A stretch of 57,730 nt of DNA from positions 1 through 57,730 of IMG/VR virus record IMGVR_UViG_3300047457_000359. One strand, written 5' to 3'. The position numbers and the translations under genes were made by a program. How positions within the stretch are numbered: position 1 is the stretch's first letter; each line of letters begins with the position of its first letter. The notes beneath the pieces are model-generated. The model was not told the DNA's origin, did not search any database, and saw only the letters and a program-made list of their open reading frames with translations. Origin of the DNA: a virus (taxonomy: Duplodnaviria; Caudoviricetes). Below, one piece after another: positions 3,476 through 53,340 of this stretch.

Positions 3476-3724
3476 ATGAGTGACGGACCCAAAGACAGGT
3501 TCAAGAAAACCCAGCACAAGAACGCAGAACAGCGTCGTCAAGATCAAGAAGAGCAGAAAGCAATCGCCAGGGCCGACGAGGGCAAGGAGTTCGTCTGCAG
3601 GAACTGCCGTAGGTGGTTGCCCAGGTCGTACTTTGAGTACGAGTTTGACGGAGAAGTCAAGTTGGCGACACGGTGCGACAGTTGTCGTGAGGAGAATCGT
3701 CAGCGGTATCGCAGGCGAGGGTGA
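3476..3724 (+). CDS. Small zinc-finger protein
   Basis: CRNC...CDSC. Confidence 0.55.
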   Translation: MSDGPKDRFKKTQHKNAEQRRQDQEEQKAIARADEGKEFVCRNCRRWLPRSYFEYEFDGEVKLATRCDSCREENRQRYRRRG

Positions 3725-4236
3725 CACCTGTCACTACACCGCAGTATCGGAGGAAAGGTACGGTACGGATCGTGAGAAGTAAGAAAGCAACTGGTTTCGC
3801 CGTGTATGGCACTTTGCGGGAGGGCGAACCGAACGAAGGAAGGTGGCGGGATCTAGGCAACGCCCGCCCAGGACGGTTCCATGTTGAGAGCCACTGTTTG
3901 TTGCGTCCAGTTGGATGGCCGTTTCCGTATGCCGTCCCGACCGCAGAAGATGGGGATCACATAGTTGTTGACTTCGTCCAGCCGTCGTCCAGACGGGCGT
4001 TCGCCAAGATGCTCCAAGCGTTTGATTGGTTGGAGGGCTATCCGACCCACTATGACCGCAGGGTCGTAGCGATCAAGGACACGGAGACAGGCTCTATCGC
4101 AGGCTATGGCTGGATCTACATCGCAGCCAAGCCGTGGGCGTTGGGCGAATGTGAGATCGTGCCACACGGCGACTGGAAGTCGGTGTGGGACAGATGGGAT
4201 TGGCTGATGAACCAAGGAAAGGAAGGTAGCCGATGA
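3721..4236 (+). CDS. Gamma-glutamylcyclotransferase (AIG2-like) family protein
   Basis: FAVYGTLREGEPN, DWLEGYPTHYDR, WIY and GDW motifs. Confidence 0.8.
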   Translation: MTPVTTPQYRRKGTVRIVRSKKATGFAVYGTLREGEPNEGRWRDLGNARPGRFHVESHCLLRPVGWPFPYAVPTAEDGDHIVVDFVQPSSRRAFAKMLQAFDWLEGYPTHYDRRVVAIKDTETGSIAGYGWIYIAAKPWALGECEIVPHGDWKSVWDRWDWLMNQGKEGSR

Positions 4237-39537: not shown

Positions 39538-40362
39538 ATGTCCAATGTTGAAGTTGACTGGCTGGGCGACCAGTTCCAGGTCAAGTTCAAGTACGACCCG
39601 CTAGTAGTAGCAGCCGTCAAGGAACTGCCTGGAAGACGGTGGGATCCAGACGGCAAAGTGTGGTTCGTCAAGGACAGCCCCCAGTTTCGGTCGTTTGTCG
39701 TTAGCCACGATGCAGTTGTCAGCGTTGATGCTGGTGCTGCAATGGCTACAAGCAAGCAATCGTTGGGATCCGTGCGCCAACATGGACCCAGGTTGATACT
39801 GGACAGCAAGTACGACGCCCGATTGGTAGAAGCGATCCGTACCGTTGAAGGACGGAAGTGGGACAAAGACCACAAACGGTGGCAGTTTCCTCTGTCCTCT
39901 GTGCGGTCAGTCAAGGCAATCGTTGATCAGTTTGATCTTGATTGGTTGGTTGATGATTCAGTCCCCGATGCTGATCCCGTCACCGTCCCGATTGTCAAGG
40001 CAAAGGGCGACCAGTTTCTGGTGTACACGACCTATGACAGAGATGTGCTGGATGCGATCAAGGAGATGCCAGGTGCCGAATGGGACAGATGGGAAACGGC
40101 GTTTCGTGTTCCTGTGGAATGTGTTGTTGAGATTGATGAGTTTGTTCATCGGTTTGCAGGTGTATTGGATGAGACAGCGCAGAAGGTTGTTCAGCAAGCG
40201 GGTGAGGTACTGACCATGTTCAAAGCAAGCAGTGCCACTTCCGCCCAGGTGGAGATCAATGGTTTCGGTGGGGATCTCATGCCGTTTCAGGGCGCAGGCG
40301 TTTTGTACGCACTTTCGGCACTTGGGTACCAGTCGGAGGCCGACGCATTGGTGCGTAAATGA
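39538..40362 (+). CDS. Three HARP-like repeats + helicase Q-motif (N-terminal part of a SNF2 helicase)
   Basis: Three YD......(K/R)...G..WD.....(W/F) repeats; ends LMPFQGAGVLY. Confidence 0.75.
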   Translation: MSNVEVDWLGDQFQVKFKYDPLVVAAVKELPGRRWDPDGKVWFVKDSPQFRSFVVSHDAVVSVDAGAAMATSKQSLGSVRQHGPRLILDSKYDARLVEAIRTVEGRKWDKDHKRWQFPLSSVRSVKAIVDQFDLDWLVDDSVPDADPVTVPIVKAKGDQFLVYTTYDRDVLDAIKEMPGAEWDRWETAFRVPVECVVEIDEFVHRFAGVLDETAQKVVQQAGEVLTMFKASSATSAQVEINGFGGDLMPFQGAGVLYALSALGYQSEADALVRK

Positions 40363-40467
40363 CATGAACACGACCTGCAATCCAAGTACCCCATGTCGCA
40401 GTTGTCAGACGGGCAACAGTCAACGGAGGTTTCGTCCACATGCCGACCACAAGATACGGAGACGCCT

Positions 40468-41790
40468 ATGTCGGGGGTAATGATCGCAGACGAAATGGGA
40501 CTGGGCAAGACCGTCCAGGCGTTAGCCGTGATCAAAGTGATCAACAAGTACCCCGTGTTGGTCGTTTGCACCAGCAGTCTCCGCAAGAACTGGGAACGGG
40601 AGATCAAGAAGTGGTTGCCAAATGTGTCGGTGGAAGTTCTGTATGGTACGACCCCACATGCTGTCAGCAGCCAGGTGCTTGTTGTTGGGTATGATGTGTT
40701 CTATGCCTGGGGTCGGGCATTGCCGACAGTAAATGTGCTGGTGTTTGATGAGTCGCACTTGTTGAAGAACGGCAACGCTCGTCGCACACAGGAAGCGATC
40801 CGATACTCAGACAAGGTCCACAAAGCAGGTGGTTCGGTGCTGTGTTTGACGGGAACGCCAGTGTTGAACCGACCGACCGAGTTGTTGACTCAGTTGAGGA
40901 TCATGAACAGGCTCGGTGAGTTCGGTGGGGTACAGGGGTTCAAGGAGCAGTTTCGGGATCCGAAGAATCTCGTCACCCTGAACAAGCGTTTGCGATCCAC
41001 TTGTTTTGTCCGCAGGAGAAAGTCGGATGTGTTGCAGGAACTGCCCCCCAAACGGTGGGCTGATGTGGTTGTTGACGGAGATCCAACGGTCATGGCTGAG
41101 TACCGCAAAGCCGAGAGAGACATAGTCGGTTTCTTGAAGAAACGCACGGAGGAACTGGCTGCAGCATCGGGCGCAAGCACGGCAGAAGCCAAACGGGCAG
41201 CATGGGAGCAGGCGTTGAGAGCAGAAGCAGCGCAGCACCTTGTGGCGGTGAACACCCTGAAACTGTTGGCAGCCCGTGCCAAGTTGAGCGTTGCGGAGCA
41301 GTGGATCACGGAGTTCGTTGGGACTGGCAGCAAGTTGGTTGTGTTCGGGTGGCACCGAGAGATTGTCGGTGGTATTGCTGAACGATTCGGTCAATCAAGC
41401 AGGGTGCAGGGAGGTATGTCGGACGAAGAAAAGCAATCGGCTGTTGACTCGTTCCAGACGGATGCAGATGTGAAGGTAATCAGTTGTTCGTTGAAGGCCG
41501 CTGGTGTCGGGATCACCCTGACTGCTGCGTCAGATGTGCTGTTCTTGGAGCAGGGATGGACGCCTGCGGATCAAGACCAGGCTGCTGATAGGTGCCACCG
41601 CATCGGTCAGCAAGACAGTGTGACCGCTTGGACTTTCATTTGCCAGGACACGATTGACGAGTACATAGCCGATGTGATCACGGCGAAACGGGCGGTTGTT
41701 GATGCAGCGACTGACGGCGAACGCAACAAGATGGAGCACACGACCAGCGTGTTGGGCGATGTGTTGGTGTGGTTGGCAAACAAGGCGTAG
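40468..41790 (+). CDS. SNF2-family helicase core
   Basis: IADEMGLGKT, DESH, LTGTP, GITLT, QA.DR.HRIGQ; GGAG RBS before ATG 40468. Confidence 0.9.
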   Translation: MSGVMIADEMGLGKTVQALAVIKVINKYPVLVVCTSSLRKNWEREIKKWLPNVSVEVLYGTTPHAVSSQVLVVGYDVFYAWGRALPTVNVLVFDESHLLKNGNARRTQEAIRYSDKVHKAGGSVLCLTGTPVLNRPTELLTQLRIMNRLGEFGGVQGFKEQFRDPKNLVTLNKRLRSTCFVRRRKSDVLQELPPKRWADVVVDGDPTVMAEYRKAERDIVGFLKKRTEELAAASGASTAEAKRAAWEQALRAEAAQHLVAVNTLKLLAARAKLSVAEQWITEFVGTGSKLVVFGWHREIVGGIAERFGQSSRVQGGMSDEEKQSAVDSFQTDADVKVISCSLKAAGVGITLTAASDVLFLEQGWTPADQDQAADRCHRIGQQDSVTAWTFICQDTIDEYIADVITAKRAVVDAATDGERNKMEHTTSVLGDVLVWLANKA

Positions 41791-41846
41791 TGTGACCTAC
41801 TTCACACTTGCCCCTACTTCCCAGGAGAAGCGTGGTTTGTCACGAT
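41791..41846 (+). promoter_or_regulatory. CRP-like box + promoter (copy 4), probably leaderless
   Basis: TGTGA-CCTACT-TCACA; weak -35; CACGAT 7 nt before ATG 41854. Confidence 0.7.
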
Positions 41847-41853
41847 TCGTCCG

Positions 41854-42876
41854 ATGCCAACTACAAGAACCACCATCGGATCGGACGGTCGGACTGTCAT
41901 CATCAGTCTCGGCCCCGAAATAGACCAGCAATGCTGGGAGTACCGTCAGGCTGGCTTCACTTGGGGCATGATTGCAGAGATGGTCGGACTCGGCGGAGCA
42001 TCGTCGGCCCGAACAGCAGCGTCACGCCACGGTCGGAGCCTCGGGATCGTGACGGGGTATGTGCCGCCGTCCAGACGGGCTGTCGGAGTGCGGACATACG
42101 GAGTTGAGATTGAGTTTGTCAACTTGACCCGCCTGGATGCTTGCGTAGCCATTGAACAGGCGTTGGGGATCCCCCATGTCCACTTGATGGACTACCACGG
42201 GCGTGATTGCTACCGCTGTCAGCAGCGGGTTCGTGGCTATCGGGAATGGAAGGTTGAGCGAGACGGATCGGTCAGCAACGGCGATTGGGGCGGTGAGGTC
42301 GTGACCCCGATCCTGCAAGGCGACGATGGCTTTGACGCAATACGCAAGGTCATGGCGGGGCTTCGCCAGGCGGGTGCAGAAGTGGATCAGTCCTGCGGTA
42401 TGCATGTTCACCTGAGCGTTGAGCACATGACCAACGGGCAGCGAGCCGAGTTGGTCCAGCAGTGGTATCAGCACCACGACACCTTTGACCGCTTCGTTGC
42501 CAAGTCCCGAACCGTCAGGGGCAACGGTCGTGGCTACGAGTACTGCCGCCGTGAGGATGACCAAGTTGTGGATCAACAGGTTGACCGAATGAAACGCCAC
42601 GGCAACTTCGGGTACACCGACAAGTATCGCAGCCTCAACCTGACGCCGTTTGCCAAGTACGGAACTTTGGAAGTCCGTATGCACCAAGGCACCCTGAACA
42701 GCCAGAAAGCCAGGAACTGGATCAAGTTGTTGATCGGGTTCTTTGACACAGTTGAGAAGGAAGAACTGTCGCAGTTGTCGCCAGGACTTGCTCTGTTGGG
42801 ATCATTGGCGGACGGCGGAAAGATCAGTCAAGAAACAGCGGCGTATCTGATGCGCCGTGCAGAACAGTTGGCATAG
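41854..42876 (+). CDS. Amidoligase (COOH-NH2 ligase) with N-terminal HTH-like segment
   Basis: TYGVEIEF, W....DGS, EVVTP.L, CGMHVH, KY..LN, TLEVR.H.GT. Confidence 0.85.
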   Translation: MPTTRTTIGSDGRTVIISLGPEIDQQCWEYRQAGFTWGMIAEMVGLGGASSARTAASRHGRSLGIVTGYVPPSRRAVGVRTYGVEIEFVNLTRLDACVAIEQALGIPHVHLMDYHGRDCYRCQQRVRGYREWKVERDGSVSNGDWGGEVVTPILQGDDGFDAIRKVMAGLRQAGAEVDQSCGMHVHLSVEHMTNGQRAELVQQWYQHHDTFDRFVAKSRTVRGNGRGYEYCRREDDQVVDQQVDRMKRHGNFGYTDKYRSLNLTPFAKYGTLEVRMHQGTLNSQKARNWIKLLIGFFDTVEKEELSQLSPGLALLGSLADGGKISQETAAYLMRRAEQLA

Positions 42877-42895
42877 CCAACGGAAAGGAAAGGAA

Positions 42896-43684
42896 ATGTG
42901 CGGAATCGCAGGTTTCAATGTTGCCGACGGAGACTTCGGCAAGATAAACAGCCAGGCGTTGGCACGGGAGTTGATCAAAGCGATTGAGATCCGTGGCACC
43001 GACGCCACTGGCGGTGCATGGACACAGAAGGCAGACAAAGTGACGGAGGTCTGGTACGCAAAGCAGGCGATACGAGCAAGTGCCTGGCAGTCGTACATCA
43101 AGGAGTACATTCCCAAGCGCAGTCGCAATGTGATCCTGCACACCCGATACGCCACGCAGGGCGATCCCAGCGACAACGACAACAACCACCCGATCGTTGT
43201 GCCAGGCATTGTCGGAGTCCACAACGGACACATCAGCAATGACCGTGAGTTGATTCGGGATCTCGGAGTTGAGCGGATCGGCCAGGTGGACTCGGAAGCG
43301 GCGTTCCAGTTGATCAGTCAGCACAGGGACAAGCCCCAGGAGCAACTGGGCGAGATTCGGGGCAGAGCAGCCCTTGCCTGGATGCGCACCGATCGCCCTC
43401 GTGAGTTGCACCTCGCCAGAGTGGAGGGATCACCCCTCGCAATCGGCCAGACCAAGGCGGGGACTGTCGTCTTTGCCTCAACGATGGACCTGTTGAAGAA
43501 GGCTTGCGACAAGGCGGGGATCAAGTTGGACTGGGAGTACCATGTTCCCGAATACCAGTACCTGGTCTTTCGCAACGGGATCATGGATGAGATGGACAGC
43601 GTTGTTCGCAAGCACTGGCCGTCGTACCACCGCACCACGCCGCCGATCTCCAAGGAGAACATGGCTCTGTACCGCCTGTTCTAA
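42896..43684 (+). CDS. Class II (Ntn) glutamine amidotransferase
   Basis: MCGIAG, RG.DA.G, HTR.AT.G, NNHP, HNG.I.N, VDSE. Confidence 0.9.
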   Translation: MCGIAGFNVADGDFGKINSQALARELIKAIEIRGTDATGGAWTQKADKVTEVWYAKQAIRASAWQSYIKEYIPKRSRNVILHTRYATQGDPSDNDNNHPIVVPGIVGVHNGHISNDRELIRDLGVERIGQVDSEAAFQLISQHRDKPQEQLGEIRGRAALAWMRTDRPRELHLARVEGSPLAIGQTKAGTVVFASTMDLLKKACDKAGIKLDWEYHVPEYQYLVFRNGIMDEMDSVVRKHWPSYHRTTPPISKENMALYRLF

Positions 43685-43705
43685 TGGCTGGTATCGTAGG
43701 GATCA

Positions 43706-43987
43706 ATGAAAGTAACGATCTACTGGCCTGACTACACGATGACCAAAGCCGCCAACGCAACCGCTGCTTTGAAGATCATCGCTGAGAAGCAGTGGGAAGA
43801 ACAAGTTTCGGTTGAGCGAATGAAGGAGTTACTCGCTGGTAGGGCTTGGGGTTGGTGCAACGCCGTTGTGGATCCCAGCCTGCCCGATGAGGAGTTCCTG
43901 TCCGCACTTGGTGACACTGGTATGGTGTTCGTGTGGTTCGGGGAAGAAGATCCGTGGCGAGGCGTCGGTGAAGGAGGCTTGGCGTGA
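43706..43987 (+). CDS. Hypothetical protein
   Basis: 93-aa ORF. Confidence 0.55.
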   Translation: MKVTIYWPDYTMTKAANATAALKIIAEKQWEEQVSVERMKELLAGRAWGWCNAVVDPSLPDEEFLSALGDTGMVFVWFGEEDPWRGVGEGGLA

Positions 43988-44462
43988 GCATGCAGCATGT
44001 AAAGGCATGCCCATTCAGTTGTTCTTTGGAACTGACGATGAAGGTCCACGAGATCGGATTGCCCGAGAGTTGCAGGCAAAAGCCGTATGTAAACGGTGCC
44101 CTGTATGGCAAACCTGTTTAGAAGCGGGATCCGAAGATGATTGCTACGGCGTTTGGGGTGGATTGACTATGGTAGAGCGCAGGCGTCGCAAGATGGAACT
44201 GGAGCACCAGGCGTACATGACAAGAAGATTTGGAGAATGGCCGAAGCGGATCCCGACAGTCGTTGCAGAACCGCAAAGCGAGTGGAGGCAGTTGGATCTG
44301 CGCCCAGGTTGGCGGGGGGATCAAGTTGCGATCAAGGTGAGGGACACCGACACGACCGATACTGGGGTTGAATACGGAGTGTTCGTAGATGGAAAGCCGT
44401 CGTTGATGTCGGGCGAAGAAACCGAGGCTTGGTTGTACTTCGCAAGTTTGACGATTACCTGA
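43968..44462 (+). CDS. whiB: WhiB-family transcription factor with C-terminal extension
   Basis: W...AAC, LFF, AKAVC.RCPV...C, GVWGGLT..ERR. Confidence 0.9.
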   Translation: MKEAWREHAACKGMPIQLFFGTDDEGPRDRIARELQAKAVCKRCPVWQTCLEAGSEDDCYGVWGGLTMVERRRRKMELEHQAYMTRRFGEWPKRIPTVVAEPQSEWRQLDLRPGWRGDQVAIKVRDTDTTDTGVEYGVFVDGKPSLMSGEETEAWLYFASLTIT

Positions 44463-44477
44463 AGTACAGTTGATGCA

Positions 44478-45695
44478 GTGAAAGACGACATTCTTGTTCA
44501 GGTGCAGACGGTGGGGATCAACACTGTCAGGGAGCATCCCGCCAATGTGAGGAAGGGGGATGTTGACCTAATCGCAGACAGTCTGGTGAACCACGGTCAA
44601 TACCGCCCGATCGTTGTCCAGCGATCAACGGGCTACATACTCGCTGGCAACCACACATGGAAAGCGGCTCGCAGGCTCGGTTGGAAGCAGATCGGCGTCA
44701 CCTACCTTGATGTTGACAATGAAACCGCAGCCAAGGTGATGTTGGCAGACAACCGCACATCGGACCTGGCGGTGTACAACGATGCACAGTTGTTGGAACT
44801 GTTGCACAGTTTGGAAGATTTGGCTGGCACGGGATTTGACGAGTTGGACCTTGATCGGTTGGAAGGTCTGTTTGATGAAGACGAAACCGAATCGGGATCA
44901 TCAGGTGGAACTGGTGGTGTCGGCAAGACCCAGTATGCCTTTGAGTTTGGACCGCTGCGTTTGGACATGCCAGCCCACATCGCAGACGCCTGGGAACAAA
45001 AGCAGAAGTTGGACAACCCGAAAGGGACACTCGCAGCGATCCGCAATCGCATTGACATGGCGGCACCCCCAAGGGAGATGACGGCACAGCCAGTCATTGA
45101 CGCCGCAGATTTGGCGGAGACGATACCCCTATCCGATCTCACGCTGTATCCGATGAACGCACGGCAGGGAGACATTGGTGCGATCTCGGAGTCGTTGCGA
45201 CTGTTCGGTCAGTATCGCCCGATTGTCGTAAACAGAAGAACGATGCACATTCTGGTCGGGAACCACACCGCTGCTGCCGCAAAGTCGTTGGGGTGGTCAA
45301 AGATTGCCGTCAGTTGGGTTGATGTGCCAGAGGATCAAGAAGCGAAGATCGTGCTGATAGACAACAGAAGCGCAGATGTTGCTATGTATGACGAAGATGG
45401 TCTGGCGACACTGTTGACCTCGTTGGGGAGTCTGATCGGAACGGGGTTTGATGGCGATGATTTGGATCAACTGTTGAGCGATGTCAGGAACGGGTATCGC
45501 AACAAGAAGCCAGCATCGCAAAGCAAGGTGAGGTGCAAGGCGGGATCCTGGGTGTGGAAACTGCCGTCAGCGCAGTTTGTTGACTGGGAAGCAAAGCACG
45601 GGACTGTTGAAAGTCCTGAGGGGATCAAGTTTCTGACCGAAGGGCTTCGTTTGACGGAAGGAACATGGACAGTGGTGGAGGACACCGATGAGTGA
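44478..45695 (+). CDS. Protein with two tandem ParB/Srx-like domains
   Basis: Twice P.N.R.GD...I..SL...GQYRPIVV.....IL.GNHT..AA..LGW...DNR..D. Confidence 0.85.
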   Translation: MKDDILVQVQTVGINTVREHPANVRKGDVDLIADSLVNHGQYRPIVVQRSTGYILAGNHTWKAARRLGWKQIGVTYLDVDNETAAKVMLADNRTSDLAVYNDAQLLELLHSLEDLAGTGFDELDLDRLEGLFDEDETESGSSGGTGGVGKTQYAFEFGPLRLDMPAHIADAWEQKQKLDNPKGTLAAIRNRIDMAAPPREMTAQPVIDAADLAETIPLSDLTLYPMNARQGDIGAISESLRLFGQYRPIVVNRRTMHILVGNHTAAAAKSLGWSKIAVSWVDVPEDQEAKIVLIDNRSADVAMYDEDGLATLLTSLGSLIGTGFDGDDLDQLLSDVRNGYRNKKPASQSKVRCKAGSWVWKLPSAQFVDWEAKHGTVESPEGIKFLTEGLRLTEGTWTVVEDTDE

Positions 45696-46380
45696 AATGC
45701 AAGTGGAAAGCCGCAGGCTTGACGAACTGACGATGGACGACAGAAACCCCCGAAAGGGAAATGTCGCAGCGATCATTGAAAGCCTGAAGGAGTTCGGCCA
45801 GCACAGGCCGATCGTTGTGCAGAAGGGGACGAACAGGATCATCGCTGGAAACCACATGTTCCAGGCGGCGCAGTCGTTGGGCTGGGAGACGATCCAGTGT
45901 GTCATTGTTGACGACGATGACGAGAAAGCGATCCGTCGTGGCATTGCCGACAACGCCACCAGCGACTTGGCTCGTTGGGATGATGACCAGTTGAAGGAAC
46001 TGTTGAACGAAGTCGGAACGGACATCGCAGGTGTGGATGACCAGTTGGTGAAGCGGCTGTTTGCGCAGATTGTCGCAGAGAACGACCCGATCTATCCGCT
46101 GGTTCCAAAGCCAGGCGAGAAGTACGACTATGTCGTTCTGTTTGCCGACAACGAGATTGACCACGGTTTCTTGATGACATTCTTCGGAGAAAAGGTGCTT
46201 GATTGGAAGACGCCAAGTCGCAGGGCGCAGCGATCACGCATCTTGCCAGTGTCGGTGTTGAGGCGGTTGATGCAAGAACACGGCCTGATCCCTGACACCG
46301 AAGCGGATCCACAGGTGGAGGCGGAGGACGCAACACCACCCACCCAGACCCCCAAGCCCAGCAGGGCTAAGAAGAAATAA
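45688..46380 (+). CDS. ParB/Srx-like domain protein
   Basis: NPRKGNV.AI.ESL.EFGQ.RPIVV...IIAGNH...ADN. Confidence 0.85.
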   Translation: MSEMQVESRRLDELTMDDRNPRKGNVAAIIESLKEFGQHRPIVVQKGTNRIIAGNHMFQAAQSLGWETIQCVIVDDDDEKAIRRGIADNATSDLARWDDDQLKELLNEVGTDIAGVDDQLVKRLFAQIVAENDPIYPLVPKPGEKYDYVVLFADNEIDHGFLMTFFGEKVLDWKTPSRRAQRSRILPVSVLRRLMQEHGLIPDTEADPQVEAEDATPPTQTPKPSRAKKK

Positions 46381-46391
46381 GAAGACGCTTT

Positions 46392-47153
46392 ATGGAAGTG
46401 AACATCGTGATCCCGAGTATGGGACGGGCTGGAGCGTTGCAGGCGCACAAGGCTGTGTCGGGCGACAGATTGACGCTGTGCGTCCCAGACGCCGAAGTGG
46501 AGGCGTACCGCAAGGCGCACCCTGACATACAGGTGGTTGGTCACCCCGACAGCGTGGTGGGACTGTCGCAGAAGCGTCAGTGGATCTACGACTATTGGGG
46601 CGATGTGATCATGATTGACGACGACTGTGATGCGATCCTGCACCTGGAACACGGTTTGGGCAACAAGCCCTGCGTGTTGACCCCAGAAGAAGGGGTGGAA
46701 CTGTGCGACCGTCTGGCTGGTGAAGCACGGGACATGAATGTGTACCTGTTCGGCGTTTCGTCCTCGGTGGACATTCGCAACTATGTTGCAGTGATGCCGT
46801 TCCGCACGGTTGGTTGGGTGAACGGTGGTTTCACGGGACTGCTTCGGGGATCCAAGTTGTCCTACCACCCGAAGATCATGTGCTCCGAAGACTTCTGGAT
46901 TTCGGCGTTGAACGCATACCACCACCGCAAGGTGTGGGTTGATACCAGGTACGCATTGCGTGATGCCAACGGTTCGGGAACGATGAAGACTCCTGGTGGA
47001 ATGGCGTTTATCCGCAGCCTGGAGAACGAAAAGCGTGACAACGAAATCCTGGCGCAGCATTTCGGAGACGCAATCAAACCCCGCCCGAAGAAGGCGGCTG
47101 GTAGAGTCAAGGCGATCCACGAGTTTCAGCGTTCGTTGACGATCCCGTGGTAG
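46392..47153 (+). CDS. GT-A fold glycosyltransferase (TET-associated/GREB1-like)
   Basis: IVIPS.GR, E...Y, KRQWI, MIDDD, ED, GG motifs. Confidence 0.7.
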   Translation: MEVNIVIPSMGRAGALQAHKAVSGDRLTLCVPDAEVEAYRKAHPDIQVVGHPDSVVGLSQKRQWIYDYWGDVIMIDDDCDAILHLEHGLGNKPCVLTPEEGVELCDRLAGEARDMNVYLFGVSSSVDIRNYVAVMPFRTVGWVNGGFTGLLRGSKLSYHPKIMCSEDFWISALNAYHHRKVWVDTRYALRDANGSGTMKTPGGMAFIRSLENEKRDNEILAQHFGDAIKPRPKKAAGRVKAIHEFQRSLTIPW

Positions 47154-47161
47154 GAGGAAAG

Positions 47162-47779
47162 ATGACAAACCTTGATGAGTTCTATGCGGAAGCAATCGGG
47201 AAGGCTGTTGAACCGTGGCAGTTGAATGACTACGGATCGGAGCGATCACAGAAGCGGCGGTTCCGAGTGGCGGCTGATGCCCTGGGGATCCGTTCGGGAG
47301 ACACGGTTGTTGATGTCGGGTGCGGAAGCGGCGAGTTGCGTCGGTATCTCTGGGCCGAAGGCATTGATGTGGAGTACATCGGCTATGACGCAGTTCCCGC
47401 AATGGTGGAACTGGCGCAGCGTTACGGCGAAAAGAATGTGATGTTGCTGGACGCACTGGAGAAGGGGATCACTATGTGCGAGCATGTTGTGTGCCTCGGC
47501 GTTCTCGGTGTTATGGAAGGAACTGAAGAAGAGCGCATGGCGAAGTTCAGCAGGTTGTTCAGCAATCTGTGCGACCACGCTCAGGTTGGCGTTGCCGTGA
47601 CGGTGCAGATGTACCGTGAGGGACTGGACAAGTCGGGTCTGCGTTGGTACATGGAGGAAGACCAGGTAGCGCAAGCCTTGATGATGCTTCGTCGGGATCA
47701 CCCCGACTTCGGATGGCAGTTGCGGATGGACTACCACCCTCACGACGCAATGTTCGTCGGCCTGTTCCGATCTTTCTGA
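47162..47779 (+). CDS. Class I SAM-dependent methyltransferase
   Basis: SQ..RF, VVDVGCGSG, YIGYD; no DPPY/NPPY motif. Confidence 0.8.
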   Translation: MTNLDEFYAEAIGKAVEPWQLNDYGSERSQKRRFRVAADALGIRSGDTVVDVGCGSGELRRYLWAEGIDVEYIGYDAVPAMVELAQRYGEKNVMLLDALEKGITMCEHVVCLGVLGVMEGTEEERMAKFSRLFSNLCDHAQVGVAVTVQMYREGLDKSGLRWYMEEDQVAQALMMLRRDHPDFGWQLRMDYHPHDAMFVGLFRSF

Positions 47780-47823
47780 AAACACGCCCAACCCTGGTGT
47801 AGTTGGGTGCTACTGTTTCATGT

Positions 47824-48456
47824 ATGGCAAGCAATAACCCGTGGTACAGCCAGCCAACCGTCAGGGGATACTCCAACCCCGAGGTTGCGTCTGCGCTGCA
47901 AAAAGCAATCAGAAGAGGACAAGTTGACAAGGCTGTGTTCTGGGCAATAGAACTGGACAGGTCGGGCTACGCACAGTATGTGTGGAAGCGTCTGCTAGTG
48001 ATCACAAGCGAGGATGTCGGTCCAGCAGAGCGGCACCTGCCCGCAACCATCTGGGCGTTGTACCAGACCTGGCGTGAGATGAACAGTTGGCGGAACGGGA
48101 ACCACCCCGAGCGGTTGCCCTTTGTTCACGCTGTGATCCTGTTGGCTTCGGCACAGAAGTCCAGGATGTGCGATCACGCAGCCTGTGGCGGCTACAACAC
48201 CAACGAAGCCCTGTTTGAGATCCCAGACGAGGCGTATGACCTCCACACCCTCAAAGGTCGCAGACTCGGCAGGGGTTTGGAGCACTGGTATGCGGAAGCA
48301 GCCAAGTTGGAGAACCCAGCCGATCTCGGGTTTGACCCGTTCGTTGAGTGGAACGCCAAGGCAGACGAGTTCAAGGGCGAGCCGTTGGTCCGCAAGGCGG
48401 GACGGACGGTCGGGGCGGTTGACGAAACTCCCCCAGCCGAACAGTTGTTTGACTAG
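47824..48456 (+). CDS. Stand-alone MgsA/RarA C-terminal-like helical domain protein
   Basis: SALQKAIRRG...A.FWA.EL...WKRL..I.SEDVG, IPD.A.D.HT..G; no Walker A. Confidence 0.65.
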   Translation: MASNNPWYSQPTVRGYSNPEVASALQKAIRRGQVDKAVFWAIELDRSGYAQYVWKRLLVITSEDVGPAERHLPATIWALYQTWREMNSWRNGNHPERLPFVHAVILLASAQKSRMCDHAACGGYNTNEALFEIPDEAYDLHTLKGRRLGRGLEHWYAEAAKLENPADLGFDPFVEWNAKADEFKGEPLVRKAGRTVGAVDETPPAEQLFD

Positions 48457-49151
48457 GTGAACAAGTCCGCCAGCCCCTGCCGACCCAGGTGAGCGTAGGC
48501 GTCCCACCAAGACAAGTTCGGTTGGAACTGTTTGAAGACCTGTTTGTAAGGAGGACAGGTCCAGTTCTGCGGGATCACTTGGATGTCGGCGTCAGCCCAC
48601 TGTTGGGGATCAAGGTAGTCCAGGCTCGGCGCACCGCAGATGTAGGTGTCGGCATCAGCCTCTTGACACAGTTCTAGCATCCAGTCGCCCTTGGTCGCTT
48701 GGGACTGGAAAGATGTGTCCAAGTAGACCTTGTGGTGGCACCCGATCATGTAGGCAGCCATGATGGTTGAAGTGGTGTTGAGATCCCCCAGCGAGTCGGT
48801 GTTGATGAACTCCTTGACCTCGGCAAGCATGTCCTCAAAGTAGGGTGCTTTGGCGTAGGAGTGAGTCAAGGTAGCCAGGAACTGTTGTCGCCAGTCCCCC
48901 TGGGCGAGAAGCGTGTCTTTGATTGGTTGCCTCTTGTTGGCGACAGGAACTGTTAGCCAGTGTGGACCGTTGGGGGATCCGACCAGGGCGTGTTGTTGTC
49001 CAGTCTTCTTGCCTTCGGTGTACCCAGTTGGCTTGTTCTTCGGAGTAAACTGGGCTGTAGTCAGAATGACGATGTGGTCGGCTTGCCGCATGCGATCCAA
49101 AAGGTGTAGTTGGGCAGCGACTGGTGGTTGAAACGCAGTCAGGATCGCCAC
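48453..49151 (-). CDS. WbqC-like family protein
   Basis: A.QP, WLTVPV, Y.KAPYF, C....ADTYI.G....YLD, Y.Q....F.PNLS..D. Confidence 0.8.
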   Translation of the reverse strand: MAILTAFQPPVAAQLHLLDRMRQADHIVILTTAQFTPKNKPTGYTEGKKTGQQHALVGSPNGPHWLTVPVANKRQPIKDTLLAQGDWRQQFLATLTHSYAKAPYFEDMLAEVKEFINTDSLGDLNTTSTIMAAYMIGCHHKVYLDTSFQSQATKGDWMLELCQEADADTYICGAPSLDYLDPQQWADADIQVIPQNWTCPPYKQVFKQFQPNLSWWDAYAHLGRQGLADLFT

Positions 49152-49789
49152 AGACGCACCTCGTAAGCCTCTGCATACTGTGTGCCTGCTTGTGCGCCAC
49201 GCATGGTAGCCAGGCTGTGTAGGGCATGGTACGAGCGTTCTGATGGGGACGGGCGGTCCTGGGACTGGTGAGCCTTCATGGCGGAAGTCTTGTCGGCCAG
49301 CATGTCGCCCGACAGTTCCACAAACCAGTTGACCCTGGGACTGTCGCCAGTAAGCGACCAGTAGTCGGGGATCTCCTCGTAGCAGGCGATTAGGTCGGGA
49401 CGGTGACGACCAGTGGATCCCGATGGGCGTGTAGCCGCAAGTACGGCGTTGGCGGTAGCCCTGTGTTCTTGGTGGAAGGACATGGGACTGGGCATGACGA
49501 GGGCGGTGGGACGGATCTCGTCCAGGATGTTCTCCATCGGCCTGACTAGATCAACAAGGGGGCGGTCGTCTAGCCAGCGGGTTGGGAACTGGGTGAGGAT
49601 CCTGAGATCCGCCCCACCAAGCATGTCAACTGCGGTTGCGAGTTCCGAAGCCCTGGTGTCGTTCGGACAGGTGACGCACACAACGGTGACTTTGCCCCCC
49701 TGTCTGTTGACCTTTGAGATCAGTCCGCCCGCTCCGATGGTTTCGTCGTCTGGGTGGGGGGCGACGACCATCAGGTTGTTGATTAGCAT
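49139..49789 (-). CDS. PIG-L/LmbE family deacetylase
   Basis: VVAPHPDDE.IG.GG, R..E, HQEH, K..AM.AH.SQ, AEAY. Confidence 0.85.
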   Translation of the reverse strand: MLINNLMVVAPHPDDETIGAGGLISKVNRQGGKVTVVCVTCPNDTRASELATAVDMLGGADLRILTQFPTRWLDDRPLVDLVRPMENILDEIRPTALVMPSPMSFHQEHRATANAVLAATRPSGSTGRHRPDLIACYEEIPDYWSLTGDSPRVNWFVELSGDMLADKTSAMKAHQSQDRPSPSERSYHALHSLATMRGAQAGTQYAEAYEVRLWRS

Positions 49790-49968
49790 GATGACAGCAT
49801 ACAACACCGTGAGGTGCATGTTGGTGTGCTAGAACGATCTGTACGCACAACGGAGGTTTAGGTGGACAAGCCTGAATGCAAGCACAGGTTCAACGGTCCT
49901 GCGATCAAGGGCTGGCGGCTGTGTGTCAAGTGTTGTGCGGTCATTGAAGCAAGCAATAGGAGCAAGCA

Positions 49969-50286
49969 ATGAAGGAATGGGAAATAGCAGCCACTTGGTG
50001 TTTCATCGGACTGGCGATCGGGATCATTGTGTGGATGGCGGTCGTTGACTACGAACAGCGCAAGGCGGCAAAGGCTGCCAGGAAGTCTCCGATCTCGGGC
50101 TACATGTTCGGTCGGACACTCAGCGAGTCGCTGGGGCTGGACCCCAGTAAAGTGAAGTCGGTCACAGTGACTGCTGACGCAAGTAGTCTTGCCGAGATCA
50201 CCGTGGTGATGTATGCTGATTGGAACGCAACCGACGGGATCAAGGAACAGATCAAGGAGTTCGTGTTGCAGGAAAGGAAGCAGTGA
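49969..50286 (+). CDS. Membrane-anchored hypothetical protein
   Basis: N-terminal TM helix. Confidence 0.55.
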   Translation: MKEWEIAATWCFIGLAIGIIVWMAVVDYEQRKAAKAARKSPISGYMFGRTLSESLGLDPSKVKSVTVTADASSLAEITVVMYADWNATDGIKEQIKEFVLQERKQ

Positions 50287-50546
50287 GTCTTGCAACGAAA
50301 GAATGGGACTTTGATGATTGGATCAAGTTCGGTTGGGACAGAGGTTGGTGCGGTCCAGTTGTGTGTTATTCGCATGACGGGCTGCCGCTAACGGCTGACG
50401 AAGTAGACGAATGGGGAGAAGGGTTTGACCCGTGTCTGCATGTGATCCGTGTGTACGAAGACCAGGAGCACCGCCTTGCGGTGGAAGCAAACGATTCGCC
50501 TACACGCTGGCGAGCCAGCAACCAGGGGTGGGAACGAAATGAGTGA
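50283..50546 (+). CDS. Hypothetical phage protein
   Basis: FD.W...G...GWCGP.VC..HDGLP...DPC.H..R.Y. Confidence 0.6.
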   Translation: MSLATKEWDFDDWIKFGWDRGWCGPVVCYSHDGLPLTADEVDEWGEGFDPCLHVIRVYEDQEHRLAVEANDSPTRWRASNQGWERNE

Positions 50547-50769
50547 CGGAGGTCACATGGAGCCACAGTTGGAGTTCCCGACCGTTGAAAGGTTGGTAGC
50601 CATGAATGAGCGACTGTCCGAAGCGGCGCACAGAGAACAGTTGCTCGCAGTCAAATGGCAGGGGATCGCCACGGCGTTGTACGAATGCTTGAAGGACATT
50701 GACCAGAAGACGACTTGTCACGGCTGTGCGTTGCAATCGTTTGAACGGGCGATAAGGGGAGAAGAATGA
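50539..50769 (+). CDS. Small hypothetical protein
   Basis: Overlapping operon context. Confidence 0.45.
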   Translation: MSDGGHMEPQLEFPTVERLVAMNERLSEAAHREQLLAVKWQGIATALYECLKDIDQKTTCHGCALQSFERAIRGEE

Positions 50770-50952
50770 ACTGGATCGTGTTTTGGGTGTGGTTCTGCGG
50801 CGGTGTGATCTTGGGACTGCTCCTTGGCTGAGTTCGCCATAGGCGTCGTTTGTGGGTTGATGATCGCCCTGATCATGTTCCTGGGGATCTGGGGCGACTA
50901 AGTCGCTGCACCCTGGTGGTGTACAGTATGCTCAACTGTAAGGAAGGTTGAC

Positions 50953-51399
50953 ATGGGTCGTAGACCGAAACTGACAGCAGATGTACAGAACGCAGTCATA
51001 GAAGCACTCGCAGCGGGGAACTACCTGGAAACAGCAGCCCAGTACGCTGGGATCCACCCTGCCACGCTGTACCGTTGGCTAGACCGTGGTAGAGCAGCAT
51101 TGGAGTCGGAAGATGGGGATCACCCCGACAAGGCTTACGGCGACTTTTGCGAGGCAGTAGAAAAGACGAGAGCGCAGGCGGAAGTCAGGGCCGTTGCTCT
51201 GATCCGCAAAGCAGCAATGGACGGCACCTGGCAAGCAGCCGCATGGTTCCTGGAACGGAGCCACCCAGGCAAGTGGGGGCGTCAAGGCAGGTTGGAAGTC
51301 ACGGGCAAGAACGGCGGGGCTGTTGAAGTAGATGTGTCGGCGTTGGAGGCGAAAGTGTCGCAGATCCTCAAAGACACTGGGGCGTCGGAAGATCTGTGA
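50953..51399 (+). CDS. terS: Terminase small subunit
   Basis: MGR..KLT, HTH (AA.YAGI...TLY.W), WQAAAW.LER..P..WG, EVTG.NGG; upstream of TerL. Confidence 0.8.
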   Translation: MGRRPKLTADVQNAVIEALAAGNYLETAAQYAGIHPATLYRWLDRGRAALESEDGDHPDKAYGDFCEAVEKTRAQAEVRAVALIRKAAMDGTWQAAAWFLERSHPGKWGRQGRLEVTGKNGGAVEVDVSALEAKVSQILKDTGASEDL

Positions 51400-51475
51400 G
51401 ATCGCTTCCTTGTACCCCCAGAACCTCGGTTTAGAAGTTCTAAGAAGCACGGAGCAGACGGTTTGAGACGGGATC

Positions 51476-53080
51476 ATGTCGGCAACGCTGGTTAGGAGCA
51501 TCTTGGCGGCAAGTCAGGAGCAGCGGTTGGCGATCTACGCCCGCATGTCCCCTGAAGAACGGCAGTATGTGGACGGCCTGTTGGCGCAGCAGTTGGACAA
51601 CCCCTGGAGGAAGTACCGCACCGATCCTGTGAGGTTTGTGGAAGAAGGACTGCAGGAGACGCTCTGGTCAAAGCAGCGTGAAATCCTGGCGTCCGTCAGG
51701 GATCACAAACGCACGGTTGTGCCAGCGTGTCACGCCCCAGGCAAATCGCACATCGCAGCCCGAGCGATCGCCTGGTGGGTGTCCAGCCACGAAATCGGCA
51801 CTGCAATGGCGGTGTCCACGGCAAGCACCTTCCGCCAAGTCAGGAACATTCTCTGGCCGCACATTCGCAGAGTCGCTGTACGCCATAACCTGCCTGGAGA
51901 AGTAATGCAGGTGGAATGGCGGATCGGCACCGAACTGGTGTCCTACGGCTTTGCCAGCAACTCCGACGAAGCGGCAGTTCAGGGGATCCACGCACCGAAC
52001 CTGTTGATTGTCGTTGACGAAGCAGGCGGTGTACACGACACGGTTGGTCGTGCCCTGGAAGCCCTGATGACGGGCGGCAACACCCGCATGTTGTTGATCG
52101 GCAACCCGCCGACAGAATCGGAGGACTCCTGGTTTGAGAGGTGCTGTGGGTCGCCCTTGTACAATGTGATCCCGATCTCGGCGTATGACACGCCGAACTT
52201 CACTGGTGAAGAAGCAGGCGAATGCAAGGCTTGCCCACCCGCTGTAGCCCCCCACTCGGTCACGGAGCATTTAGTTGACCAGACTTGGGTTGACGATGTG
52301 ATCTCGGAGTTTGGTGTTGAGTCGCCCTTCGTTGAAGCCCGTGTTCTCGCCAAGTTCCCCCGTTCGGGCGGCAGCCGAGTGATCCCCTTGGGGTGGGTTG
52401 AGTCGGCAATGCAGAACGAAGATCCTGAAGGCGGCGAAACGATCCGTCTCGGAGTAGATGTGGCGTCGGACGGTGGTGATGAGTTCGTGATCGCTTGGGC
52501 GGACGGTTTCAAGGTGTCCATCAAGCACAACTCGTCGGGCGAAAAGAACGAGAACGCCATTGATGTCACCAAGCGACTGTTGGATGTAGTCCTGGAAGCA
52601 GAGTCGGTACACGCTGCCAGGGGGATCGGGGATCCCGTCAGGGTCAAGATTGACGAAATCGGTCTGGGTTGGGCCGTTGTGTCCCTGTTGAAGCGGTGGG
52701 GCGAAGAAGGCAAGCACAAGTCCGTGATCATTGGGGTGAATGTGTCCGAGCGAGCGAGGCAGGGCGACAAGTTCACGAACCAGCGAGCAGAACTTTGGTG
52801 GAATGGGCGTCTAGCCTGCCAGTACGACAGCATGGGTAGACAGCAGGTCAAGTTGAACATTGACCGCAGGACTATGGCGCAGTTGGCAGCCCCGTCCTAC
52901 AAGGCTGACAGCCAGGGTCGGATCATGATTGAAAAGAAGCAAGACATGAAGAAGCGGGGAGTCACCTCGCCAGACAGGGCCGAAGCAGTGCTGTTGGCTT
53001 TGTATGAGCCACCAGGTGCAGGTCCGATTGAGCCAGTCGCTCCGCTTGCGATCACCCAGACCAACCCTTGGAAGTTCTGA
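51476..53080 (+). CDS. terL: Terminase large subunit
   Basis: Q motif, HAPGKS (Walker A), IVVDEA (Walker B), IGNP, LGVDVA, SPDRAEA. Confidence 0.92.
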   Translation: MSATLVRSILAASQEQRLAIYARMSPEERQYVDGLLAQQLDNPWRKYRTDPVRFVEEGLQETLWSKQREILASVRDHKRTVVPACHAPGKSHIAARAIAWWVSSHEIGTAMAVSTASTFRQVRNILWPHIRRVAVRHNLPGEVMQVEWRIGTELVSYGFASNSDEAAVQGIHAPNLLIVVDEAGGVHDTVGRALEALMTGGNTRMLLIGNPPTESEDSWFERCCGSPLYNVIPISAYDTPNFTGEEAGECKACPPAVAPHSVTEHLVDQTWVDDVISEFGVESPFVEARVLAKFPRSGGSRVIPLGWVESAMQNEDPEGGETIRLGVDVASDGGDEFVIAWADGFKVSIKHNSSGEKNENAIDVTKRLLDVVLEAESVHAARGIGDPVRVKIDEIGLGWAVVSLLKRWGEEGKHKSVIIGVNVSERARQGDKFTNQRAELWWNGRLACQYDSMGRQQVKLNIDRRTMAQLAAPSYKADSQGRIMIEKKQDMKKRGVTSPDRAEAVLLALYEPPGAGPIEPVAPLAITQTNPWKF

Positions 53081-53130
53081 TTTGCGTGGTGCAGTCGGTT
53101 CTGCTATCGGACCTTGATTTGCGTGGTGCA
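53078..53130 (+). repeat. 16-bp perfect direct repeat
   Basis: TGATTTGCGTGGTGCA at 53078-53093 and 53115-53130. Confidence 0.9.
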
Positions 53131-53340
53131 ATGGGACATGCTACGCACCAAGACGCTGGTGGAGTAGGCGAACAACTGTTCGTTGTGATCTAGAACGCAC
53201 GGAGCAGAACGGACGAACGGATTGTTTGGGCTACCTGTACCCACATTTGTCAAGTCAGCAGTTCCTAGACGAACGGAGCAAGAAGTTTAGGACGCTAAAC
53301 AAACGGTTTAGGCGTATGCAGCATCGGTGTAGAACGCTAG

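Follow-up and report, generated by a model that had tools for sequence, protein, structure and literature searches.

To what does a phage attach a sugar when the glycosyltransferase (GT) that would do so is encoded next to ParB-like proteins and a stand-alone MgsA_C domain, just before the terminase genes? The question is raised by a seven-gene cluster in the IMG/VR virus record IMGVR_UViG_3300047457_000359 (Duplodnaviria; Caudoviricetes), a sequence of 57,730 bp that CheckV rates 100% complete; the whole of this sequence is called the window below. An earlier note on the window had described three ParB-like domains, a GT, a methyltransferase, an MgsA_C-like domain and a converging pair of PIG-L and WbqC genes, and had proposed that a sugar is attached, deacetylated, glycylated and methylated on DNA or on virion proteins. 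Open reading frames (ORFs) and Pfam searches bear out the seven contiguous genes, with these domains, upstream of terS. As for the limits assigned to the cluster, 44478-49789, the start is correct, and the end proves to be an internal ATG of the PIG-L ORF, which extends to 49819. We read the cluster as a conserved three-part module of ParB1, GT and MgsA_C that is accompanied by lineage-specific sugar-tailoring enzymes and has phage DNA as its likely acceptor, a tentative reading that we hold with slightly less than even confidence.

A core of ParB1, glycosyltransferase and MgsA_C

IMG/VR loci were gathered with three seeds (the GT family, an alignment of WbqC and the ParB1 family) and scored with profiles built from the window proteins and their homologues, the WbqC profile scan using alignment A4. 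Merging loci on the same contig gave 67 unique contigs; individual loci are designated with the prefix L in the following. The GT is present in 57 of them. ParB is encoded directly upstream of it, usually overlapping, in 56 of the 57, and MgsA_C downstream in 53. When the loci are seeded with ParB1, the GT follows directly in 37 of 38 cases, and the exception is cut off by a contig end. The module is common, as 493 representative clusters in a collection of 1.84 billion proteins match the ParB1 profile at E <= 1e-30; the GC content of the loci ranges from 31 to 68%, which indicates very different hosts. The tailoring genes are less constant: PIG-L occurs in 27 and WbqC in 25 of the 57 GT contigs, WbqC always together with PIG-L; the methyltransferase is found in 8, each time accompanied by WbqC and PIG-L; and an amidoligase is found in 3. 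Co-occurrence in other phages, on which the earlier note had made its proposal depend, is also seen from the side of WbqC, since 30 of 34 WbqC contigs carry PIG-L and 25 carry the full set of GT, adjacent ParB and MgsA_C. Because it recurs in other phages, the arrangement is more than chance. The idea that the seven genes form one pathway survives in part: the co-occurrence is recurrent, but what is constant is the three-gene core, to which exchangeable tailoring genes are added.

The GT gene (46392-47153, + strand; 253 aa) encodes a member of the TET-associated glycosyltransferase (TAGT) family PF20691, with 46.1 bits against a cut-off of 27.5, and also matches phrog_842. Its orthologue in L003 scores 72 bits against TAGT, and of 66 database homologues all but P0106, for which there is no Pfam hit, likewise carry PF20691. 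A DDD motif (D76, D77 and D78) is invariant in the 33 sequences of alignment A2. The AlphaFold2 (AF2) model has a GT-A fold, with a predicted local distance difference test score (pLDDT) of 90.8, and the nearest solved structures found by Foldseek are the GT-A enzymes TarP/TarS, ColGalT1, RmlT and ppGalNAcT (E ~2e-6, TM ~0.4-0.5).

ParB1 (45688-46380, + strand; 230 aa) consists of a single ParB_N domain (E 2.5e-8), a linker and a C-terminal domain of ~70 residues (about residues 130-190), in which P137, E144, Y146 and D158 are conserved (alignment A5). When GT and ParB1 were modelled as a complex, the interface score ipSAE was 0.64 (0.65, 0.60 and 0.64 in the individual runs) and the best of three controls gave 0.00; contacts agreed between runs by at least 66%, and the partners had a pLDDT of at least 67. 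Of 80 solved complexes 58 attain this ipSAE mark, as do 2 of 110 mismatched pairs; since our own alignments were used for the model, these counts apply to it only roughly. In the model, ParB1 residues 132-150 and 171-185 place the C-terminal domain against a conserved surface of the GT, and the interface residues conserved in the families are P137, E144 and Y146 of ParB1 and P136, L173, A175, R179, R186, F224, G225 and P252 of the GT. To our knowledge there is no solved ParB-GT structure from which the complex could have been memorised. On the model, then, ParB1 appears to be an adaptor that holds the GT through its C-terminal domain.

The first gene of the cluster (44478-45695, + strand; 405 aa) encodes a protein with two ParB_N domains (Pfam ParB_N E 5.8e-12; two stretches in the phrog_723/620 and TIGR00180 matches). 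Its orthologues lie upstream of ParB1 in L002-L009, L066 and L074, and are confined to the actinophage-like subgroup to which the window belongs. The window ParB proteins differ from Spo0J in that they score 54.1 and 38.6 bits with TIGR00180, below its cut-off of 58.45, and contain only ParB_N, with no helix-turn-helix (HTH) found. Short HTH-less ParB proteins of this kind activate phage thymine dioxygenases on double-stranded DNA, according to O'Toole et al. (2026, PMC13229309). Those proteins share with ParB1 a nucleotide-binding N-domain followed by a C-terminal domain, and a gene immediately upstream of the enzyme that they serve; they differ in that the partner here is a GT, that the C-terminal domain of ParB1 is different and GT-specific, and that the interface is modelled only.

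In Mycobacterium phage Cooper, gp1 aligns with the N-domain and linker of the ParB1 profile (E 4.6e-26) as far as profile position 134. It shares the AGNH motif of the window ParB domains, and its gene overlaps that of gp2, which matches Tet_JBP (E 4e-8, below the Pfam cut-off). This fits a modular picture in which a common ParB head carries partner-specific tails. Cooper (DQ398044.1, 1-1753) is itself an isolated actinophage with a ParB-dioxygenase pairing.

The third partner (47803-48456, + strand; 217 aa), a helical protein similar to the C-terminal part of RarA, matches MgsA_C only, with 37.5 bits against a cut-off of 27. It has no AAA+ domain, and RarA models give it 30.6 bits against a cut-off of 570. 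In the protein atlas, viral stand-alone MgsA_C proteins form clusters of their own.

Among 50,697 GenBank phages, no DNA-level similarity to the cluster was found in either near or distant mode, and the window WbqC had no tblastn match. Database WbqC proteins 67-89% identical to that of the window exist (P0002-P0004 and P0041-P0042), and no contigs with close WbqC relatives were recovered from viral, genome and metagenome contig collections. The GT relatives in GenBank phages, in Streptococcus phage Javan291 and Clostridium phages CS266P2/CS266P4, are only 24-26% identical; in the two that were looked at, Javan291 and CS266P4, a match to the ParB1 profile lies upstream of the GT and the terminase lies downstream. 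No published description of a ParB-GT-MgsA_C system was found in the literature searched, although the supplements of O'Toole et al. (Dataset S10) and of Pyle et al. may list such contigs.

Tailoring enzymes

The two genes on the opposite strand converge on the others, as the earlier note had described, with the stop codon of WbqC overlapping that of MgsA_C. The PIG-L gene overlaps the start of WbqC by 13 nucleotides, through which PIG-L is translationally coupled to WbqC. PIG-L (49139-49819, - strand; 226 aa) is a clear Pfam match (E 4.3e-20; 73 bits against a cut-off of 28.2), and its sequence contains PHPDDE and HQEH, which we take to be the zinc-site motifs of the family. Among solved structures it is closest to diacetylchitobiose deacetylase, BshB and MshB, all of which de-N-acetylate an N-acetylglucosamine (GlcNAc) glycoside. 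With the BshB and MshB equivalog models it scores 48-62 bits and so falls short of their cut-offs of 182-224.

WbqC (48453-49151, - strand; 232 aa) belongs clearly to the family PF08889 known from O-antigen loci (Pfam E 9.6e-37; 127.4 bits against a cut-off of 21.3); members of the phage clade diverge in the N-terminal motif and contain an inserted loop, and cellular homologues are 25-31% identical. No PDB sequence match (E <= 1) and no NCBIfam match was found for it, and nothing in the literature searched, judged by titles and abstracts, characterises the family biochemically or structurally. The AF2 model (pLDDT 89) has BshC of Bacillus subtilis (4wbd) as its top Foldseek match, with a probability of 0.99. 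VIA-align superposes the two with Z 14.4 and a root-mean-square deviation of 2.9 A over 213 of 232 residues, and the next structural matches are class I lysyl-tRNA synthetase (Z 10.9), the Tyr-, Gln- and Glu-tRNA synthetases (~9) and pantoate-beta-alanine ligase (8.9). Since the alignment to BshC stands well above these, WbqC is placed among the HUP-fold adenylate-forming ligases. At 232 aa it corresponds to the core of the 540-aa BshC chain and not to its full architecture. The model suggests that WbqC would act as an ATP-dependent ligase in the acylation of an amino sugar. In addition, the homologue P0108 is fused to sugar nucleotidyltransferase domains, and tailoring might therefore occur on the nucleotide sugar.

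The methyltransferase (47147-47779, + strand; 210 aa) is of the class I S-adenosylmethionine-dependent type (Methyltransf_23/25/11). Its sequence contains GxGxG and lacks (D/N)PPY, and its only NCBIfam matches are sub-threshold ones to small-molecule methyltransferases. With no match to a DNA-methylase family, it is predicted to be of the small-molecule or sugar type. For the cluster proteins as a whole, the NCBIfam scan gave nothing beyond the superfamily level. The chemistry of attachment, deacetylation, aminoacylation and methylation suggested in the earlier note gains support from the likeness of WbqC to BshC and of PIG-L to deacetylases of GlcNAc glycosides, with the reservation that the acyl group need not be glycyl.

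The tailoring genes are arranged in three ways. The reversed arrangement of the window is also found in L004-L009 and L066. In the L013-type arrangement the genes are co-directional and overlapping, in the order PIG-L>WbqC>ParB>GT>MgsA_C>terL, and their WbqC and PIG-L proteins are ~25-28% identical to those of the window. In the third they are scattered across the 97-kb contig L061, which further carries a second WbqC, an NAD-dependent epimerase/dehydratase, a UDP-sugar (UDP-glucose) dehydrogenase and a methyltransferase. Other variants have a UDP-glucose dehydrogenase (L003), a second GT (L032 and L037) or, in L077, PIG-L and a weak, sub-threshold ATP-grasp-like gene (Pfam E 0.0077) in place of WbqC. 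Such variation among the donor and tailoring genes points to a single sugar chemistry that is exchangeable. In prophage-type loci, N6_Mtase and unknown genes stand between GT and MgsA_C (L016, L020, L022 and L024), or ArdC is present (L012). An AbiGi-like gene lies at L016:17008-18003 (- strand) and an ArdC-like anti-restriction gene at L012:12009-12851; the position of the module in such loci thus also collects defence and counter-defence cargo.

DNA and other candidate acceptors

Under the reading that we favour, the core of ParB1, TAGT GT and stand-alone MgsA_C would be expressed just before the terminase genes, the C-terminal domain of ParB1 holding the GT and its ParB_N domain giving DNA- or nucleotide-dependent targeting. 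The GT would transfer an N-acetylhexosamine, probably GlcNAc from UDP-GlcNAc; PIG-L would remove the N-acetyl group; the BshC-like WbqC would join an amino acid to the freed amine at the expense of ATP; and the class I methyltransferase would methylate the product. Alternatively, the last three steps may take place on the nucleotide sugar, before transfer. The acceptor would be the DNA of the phage itself, which would receive the modification once replicated and either ahead of packaging or in the course of it, with protection from host nucleases as the likely consequence. We favour DNA because of the GT family, the obligate ParB and RarA-C-like partners, the DNA-methylase and anti-restriction neighbours, the position before the terminase genes, and the literature on hypermodification clusters, in which ParB, GT and terminase occur together in phages (PMC13229309). 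Even so, we place the probability of DNA as the acceptor at a little under one half.

The proposal can be set beside two known kinds of DNA modification. The sugar-hypermodification clusters built around 5mYOX (TET/JBP) dioxygenases or ThyS (Burke et al. 2021, PMC8256090; Pyle et al. 2023) share with the window a GT-A enzyme of the TET-associated family, a ParB-like gene, sugar-tailoring genes and proximity to the terminase. They differ in that the window and the related records have no dioxygenase or hydroxymethylase apart from one weak Thymidylat_synt match, that the window has no C5-methylase, and that stand-alone MgsA_C is a constant third partner here. Neither PIG-L nor WbqC occurs as a term in the available part of Pyle et al. 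The other is the glucosylation of 5-hydroxymethylcytosine (hmC) in T-even phages: phrog_842, which the window GT matches, is annotated as a beta-glucosyl-HMC-alpha-glucosyltransferase, and the T-even modification is likewise made after replication and before packaging. T-even phages obtain hmC by means of a dCMP hydroxymethylase together with a polymerase of their own, whereas searches with Thymidylat_synt, DNA_pol_A and DNA_pol_B reveal neither this route nor a phage polymerase in the window.

Several points weigh against DNA as the acceptor or against the mechanism proposed for it. The window contains no source of a 5-hydroxymethyl-pyrimidine. The earlier note had seen no TET/JBP dioxygenase, hydroxymethylase or DNA polymerase, and family searches of the whole record agree: none of Tet_JBP (E <= 10), Thymidylat_synt, C5 DNA_methylase, TGT, N6_N4_Mtase, N6_Mtase, DNA_pol_A and DNA_pol_B was found. 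The TET/JBP association from which the TAGT family takes its name is absent from the related records as well, with Tet_JBP in 0 of 31, 9 of them at least 90% complete; the same search detected Cooper gp2 as a positive control. For Thymidylat_synt, 38 related records yielded a single match, a weak one of 12.9 bits. Canonical DNA offers no hydroxyl for such a transfer, and glycosylation of DNA here would need chemistry for which we know of no precedent. In addition, the solved folds closest to the GT act on teichoic acid or proteins (TarP/TarS, ColGalT1 and ppGalNAcT); the binding of ParB1 to the GT is model-based and not measured; the window ParB domains have AGNH in place of the arginine-rich GxRR motif (the CTP motif); and in the window clade of WbqC a longer, low-confidence loop replaces the QNRNR stretch that is conserved in the family. 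The survey counts are biased by the way in which the loci were gathered and include close relatives. Finally, orphan GT contigs are regarded as less obviously DNA-related by Pyle et al. (bioRxiv 10.1101/2023.12.21.572611).

Candidates for a missing oxygenase were also considered. Ten representatives of the recurrent unknown neighbours in other loci matched no oxygenase family. A dioxygenase hidden among the unannotated window proteins was rejected: the ORFs at 32-1000 and 997-1587, for which neither Pfam nor PHROG gives a hit, encode repeat proteins of low complexity. These two ORFs and a third without such a hit, at 1787-2185, share a near-identical motif of 19 residues, present in four copies, each followed by a low-complexity sequence rich in Gly, Ser and Ala. 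A specific form of the DNA reading would do without an oxygenase: the sugar would be put directly on a canonical base, or on another position of the polymer that needs no hydroxymethyl-pyrimidine, and then be made into an N-aminoacyl methylated hexosamine by machinery that is tethered by a ParB clamp and coupled to packaging. We consider this form doubtful.

The absence of a hydroxymethyl-pyrimidine pathway would be no obstacle if the acceptor were a protein, either a DNA-bound or packaging protein (ParB, terminase or portal) or the virion proteins, as in glycosylated mycobacteriophage capsids. Virion glycosylation by GT and methyltransferase genes of actinophages is known, the structural neighbours of the GT include the protein O-glycosyltransferases ColGalT1, ppGalNAcT and POMGnT1, and the module adjoins packaging and structural genes. 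However, the GT falls in TAGT and not in a generic GT2 family, it is obligately paired with ParB_N and MgsA_C, both DNA-associated families, and DNA methylase and ArdC genes neighbour the module in other variants. The repeat-motif proteins at 32-2185 were tried as acceptors and rejected, being absent from all five relatives searched, in a search that had no positive control. We therefore regard a protein acceptor as rather unlikely. A host envelope polymer, modified as by TarP for receptor masking or superinfection exclusion, or an aminoacyl-glucosamine metabolite resembling bacillithiol or mycothiol seems quite unlikely to us, although each has something to recommend it. TarP is prophage-encoded, TarP and TarS are the best Foldseek matches of the GT, and many module-bearing records are proviruses; and the succession of GT, PIG-L deacetylase and BshC-like ligase is the order of bacillithiol and mycothiol synthesis (BshA/B/C and MshA/B/C), in which GlcNAc transfer is followed by de-N-acetylation by a PIG-L/LmbE enzyme and by ligation of an amino acid to the amine by a HUP-fold enzyme, BshC being the putative cysteine-adding enzyme that acts after the PIG-L-family deacetylase BshB. 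Yet the TM score to TarP is only ~0.49, which reflects a generic GT-A core. BshA and MshA are GT-B enzymes, whereas the window GT is a GT-A enzyme; PIG-L scores far below the equivalog cut-offs and WbqC has no BshC sequence match. WbqC is missing from 32 of the 57 GT contigs, so that the role of the GT must be independent of WbqC and PIG-L. Such an acceptor would also leave the ParB and MgsA_C partners and the phage packaging context before the terminase genes unexplained, and no integrase was found among the window proteins scanned, in a scan that was not exhaustive.

The cluster may also consist of two unrelated units, the ParB-GT-MgsA_C module and an independent moron, made up of the reversed WbqC and PIG-L genes with the methyltransferase, that has settled at a permissive site before the terminase. 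Nearly all genes of the record lie on the + strand and the WbqC/PIG-L pair is the sole reversed cassette, the module is missing from 9 of the 34 WbqC contigs, and the window WbqC is unmatched in other GenBank phages. What makes this very unlikely in our judgement is that the divergent WbqC and PIG-L genes of the L013-type loci are linked to the same module in a co-directional, overlapping order, with L061 providing a third arrangement, and that the methyltransferase occurs only where WbqC and PIG-L do (8 of 8); this repeated independent linkage argues for a shared function. The system is best filed as a phage glycosyl-hypermodification cluster that is independent of a hydroxymethylase and tethered by ParB, with an MgsA_C partner and BshB/BshC-like tailoring.

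GGGATC had been suggested in the earlier note as a possible target. The motif is strongly enriched in the window, with 229 occurrences on both strands (178 on + and 51 on -) against 29 +/- 5 expected; they are spread over the three reading frames (64/41/38) and intergenic sequence (35), and fall in every 5-kb bin. GATC itself occurs 678 times on both strands against ~230 expected. GGGATC is thus a DNA-level, orientation-biased signal. As a target linked to the module it was rejected: the nearest module-bearing relatives do not share the enrichment, their observed/expected ratio for GATC being 0.00 (L002, L003 and L008) or ~2 with no excess of GGGATC. Among module loci in general, GATC usage is strongly bimodal: many have no GATC in 8-20 kb (L002, L003, L008, L012, L018, L025, L054, L065 and others), and others have a 2-3.8-fold excess. 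Further hexamers are over-represented with a strand bias in the window, namely TGTTGA (93 against 12 expected, with 12 of its reverse complement), CAGTTG, GTTGAC, CTGTTG and TTGAAG.

Genomic setting and significance

The structural block of the window begins with the portal (5329) and MuF (6834), followed by the protease/scaffold and capsid genes, after which comes the tape measure (24389). A replication and recombination block then encodes a metallophosphoesterase, a RecE-like exonuclease, a DnaD-like protein, a G39P-like loader, HARP and SNF2. The HARP-domain protein lies directly upstream of the SNF2-family helicase (39538-41790), and the two resemble a split SMARCAL1-like annealing helicase. 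Next come Amidoligase_2 (41854-42876, + strand), a class II glutamine amidotransferase (42857-43684, + strand) and WhiB, then the cluster, and immediately downstream of it terS (50953-51399, + strand) and terL (51476-53080, + strand); the same terL family lies downstream of the module in related loci. The presence of WhiB points to an actinobacterial host. Scanning 43600-51500 turned up no promoter-like site; terminator-like sites numbered 7, with 6.7 expected.

The pair of amidoligase and glutamine amidotransferase genes, both Pfam matches and the upstream neighbours of the module, also stands upstream of ParB in L003, L074 and L073 (the contig of L073 ends before the expected GT), and is absent within 4.7 kb upstream of the module in L066; it may be linked to the module. 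Amidation of a uronic acid is hinted at by L003, where this pair follows a UDP-glucose dehydrogenase and a GP88-family gene. Elsewhere in the window, a gamma-glutamyl-cyclotransferase-like gene (phrog_2520) is found at 3721-4236. Short contigs that are nearly identical to the window (0-3 letter differences over 150-670 nucleotides) cover 41000-53200 in four further lake or freshwater runs from different studies, and the phage or close strains of it therefore recur in such waters.

Pyle et al. (bioRxiv 10.1101/2023.12.21.572611) note that neither 5mYOX nor ThyS is a neighbour in about 65% of the phage GT contigs that are related to DNA glycosyltransferases, and leave the role of these contigs open. 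The window gives this orphan class a testable form: a constant triad of ParB, GT and MgsA_C, a modelled interface with named conserved residues, and exchangeable donor and tailoring genes. The isolated phages Javan291, CS266P2 and CS266P4 carry the minimal ParB-GT pair (the adjacency of ParB being checked in Javan291 and CS266P4), so the idea can be tested on existing material. Whatever the acceptor, the BshC-like fold of the model offers the WbqC family of O-antigen loci a mechanistic hypothesis, namely that of an ATP-dependent ligase joining an amino acid to an amino sugar. Placement of the sugar directly on a canonical base or on another position of the polymer, if true, would be a new class of DNA hypermodification. 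More generally, if DNA is the acceptor, the module would represent a hydroxymethyl-independent route to decorating DNA with a sugar and an amino acid, which would bear on how phages escape restriction and CRISPR, on artefacts in sequencing and on the supply of enzyme tools.

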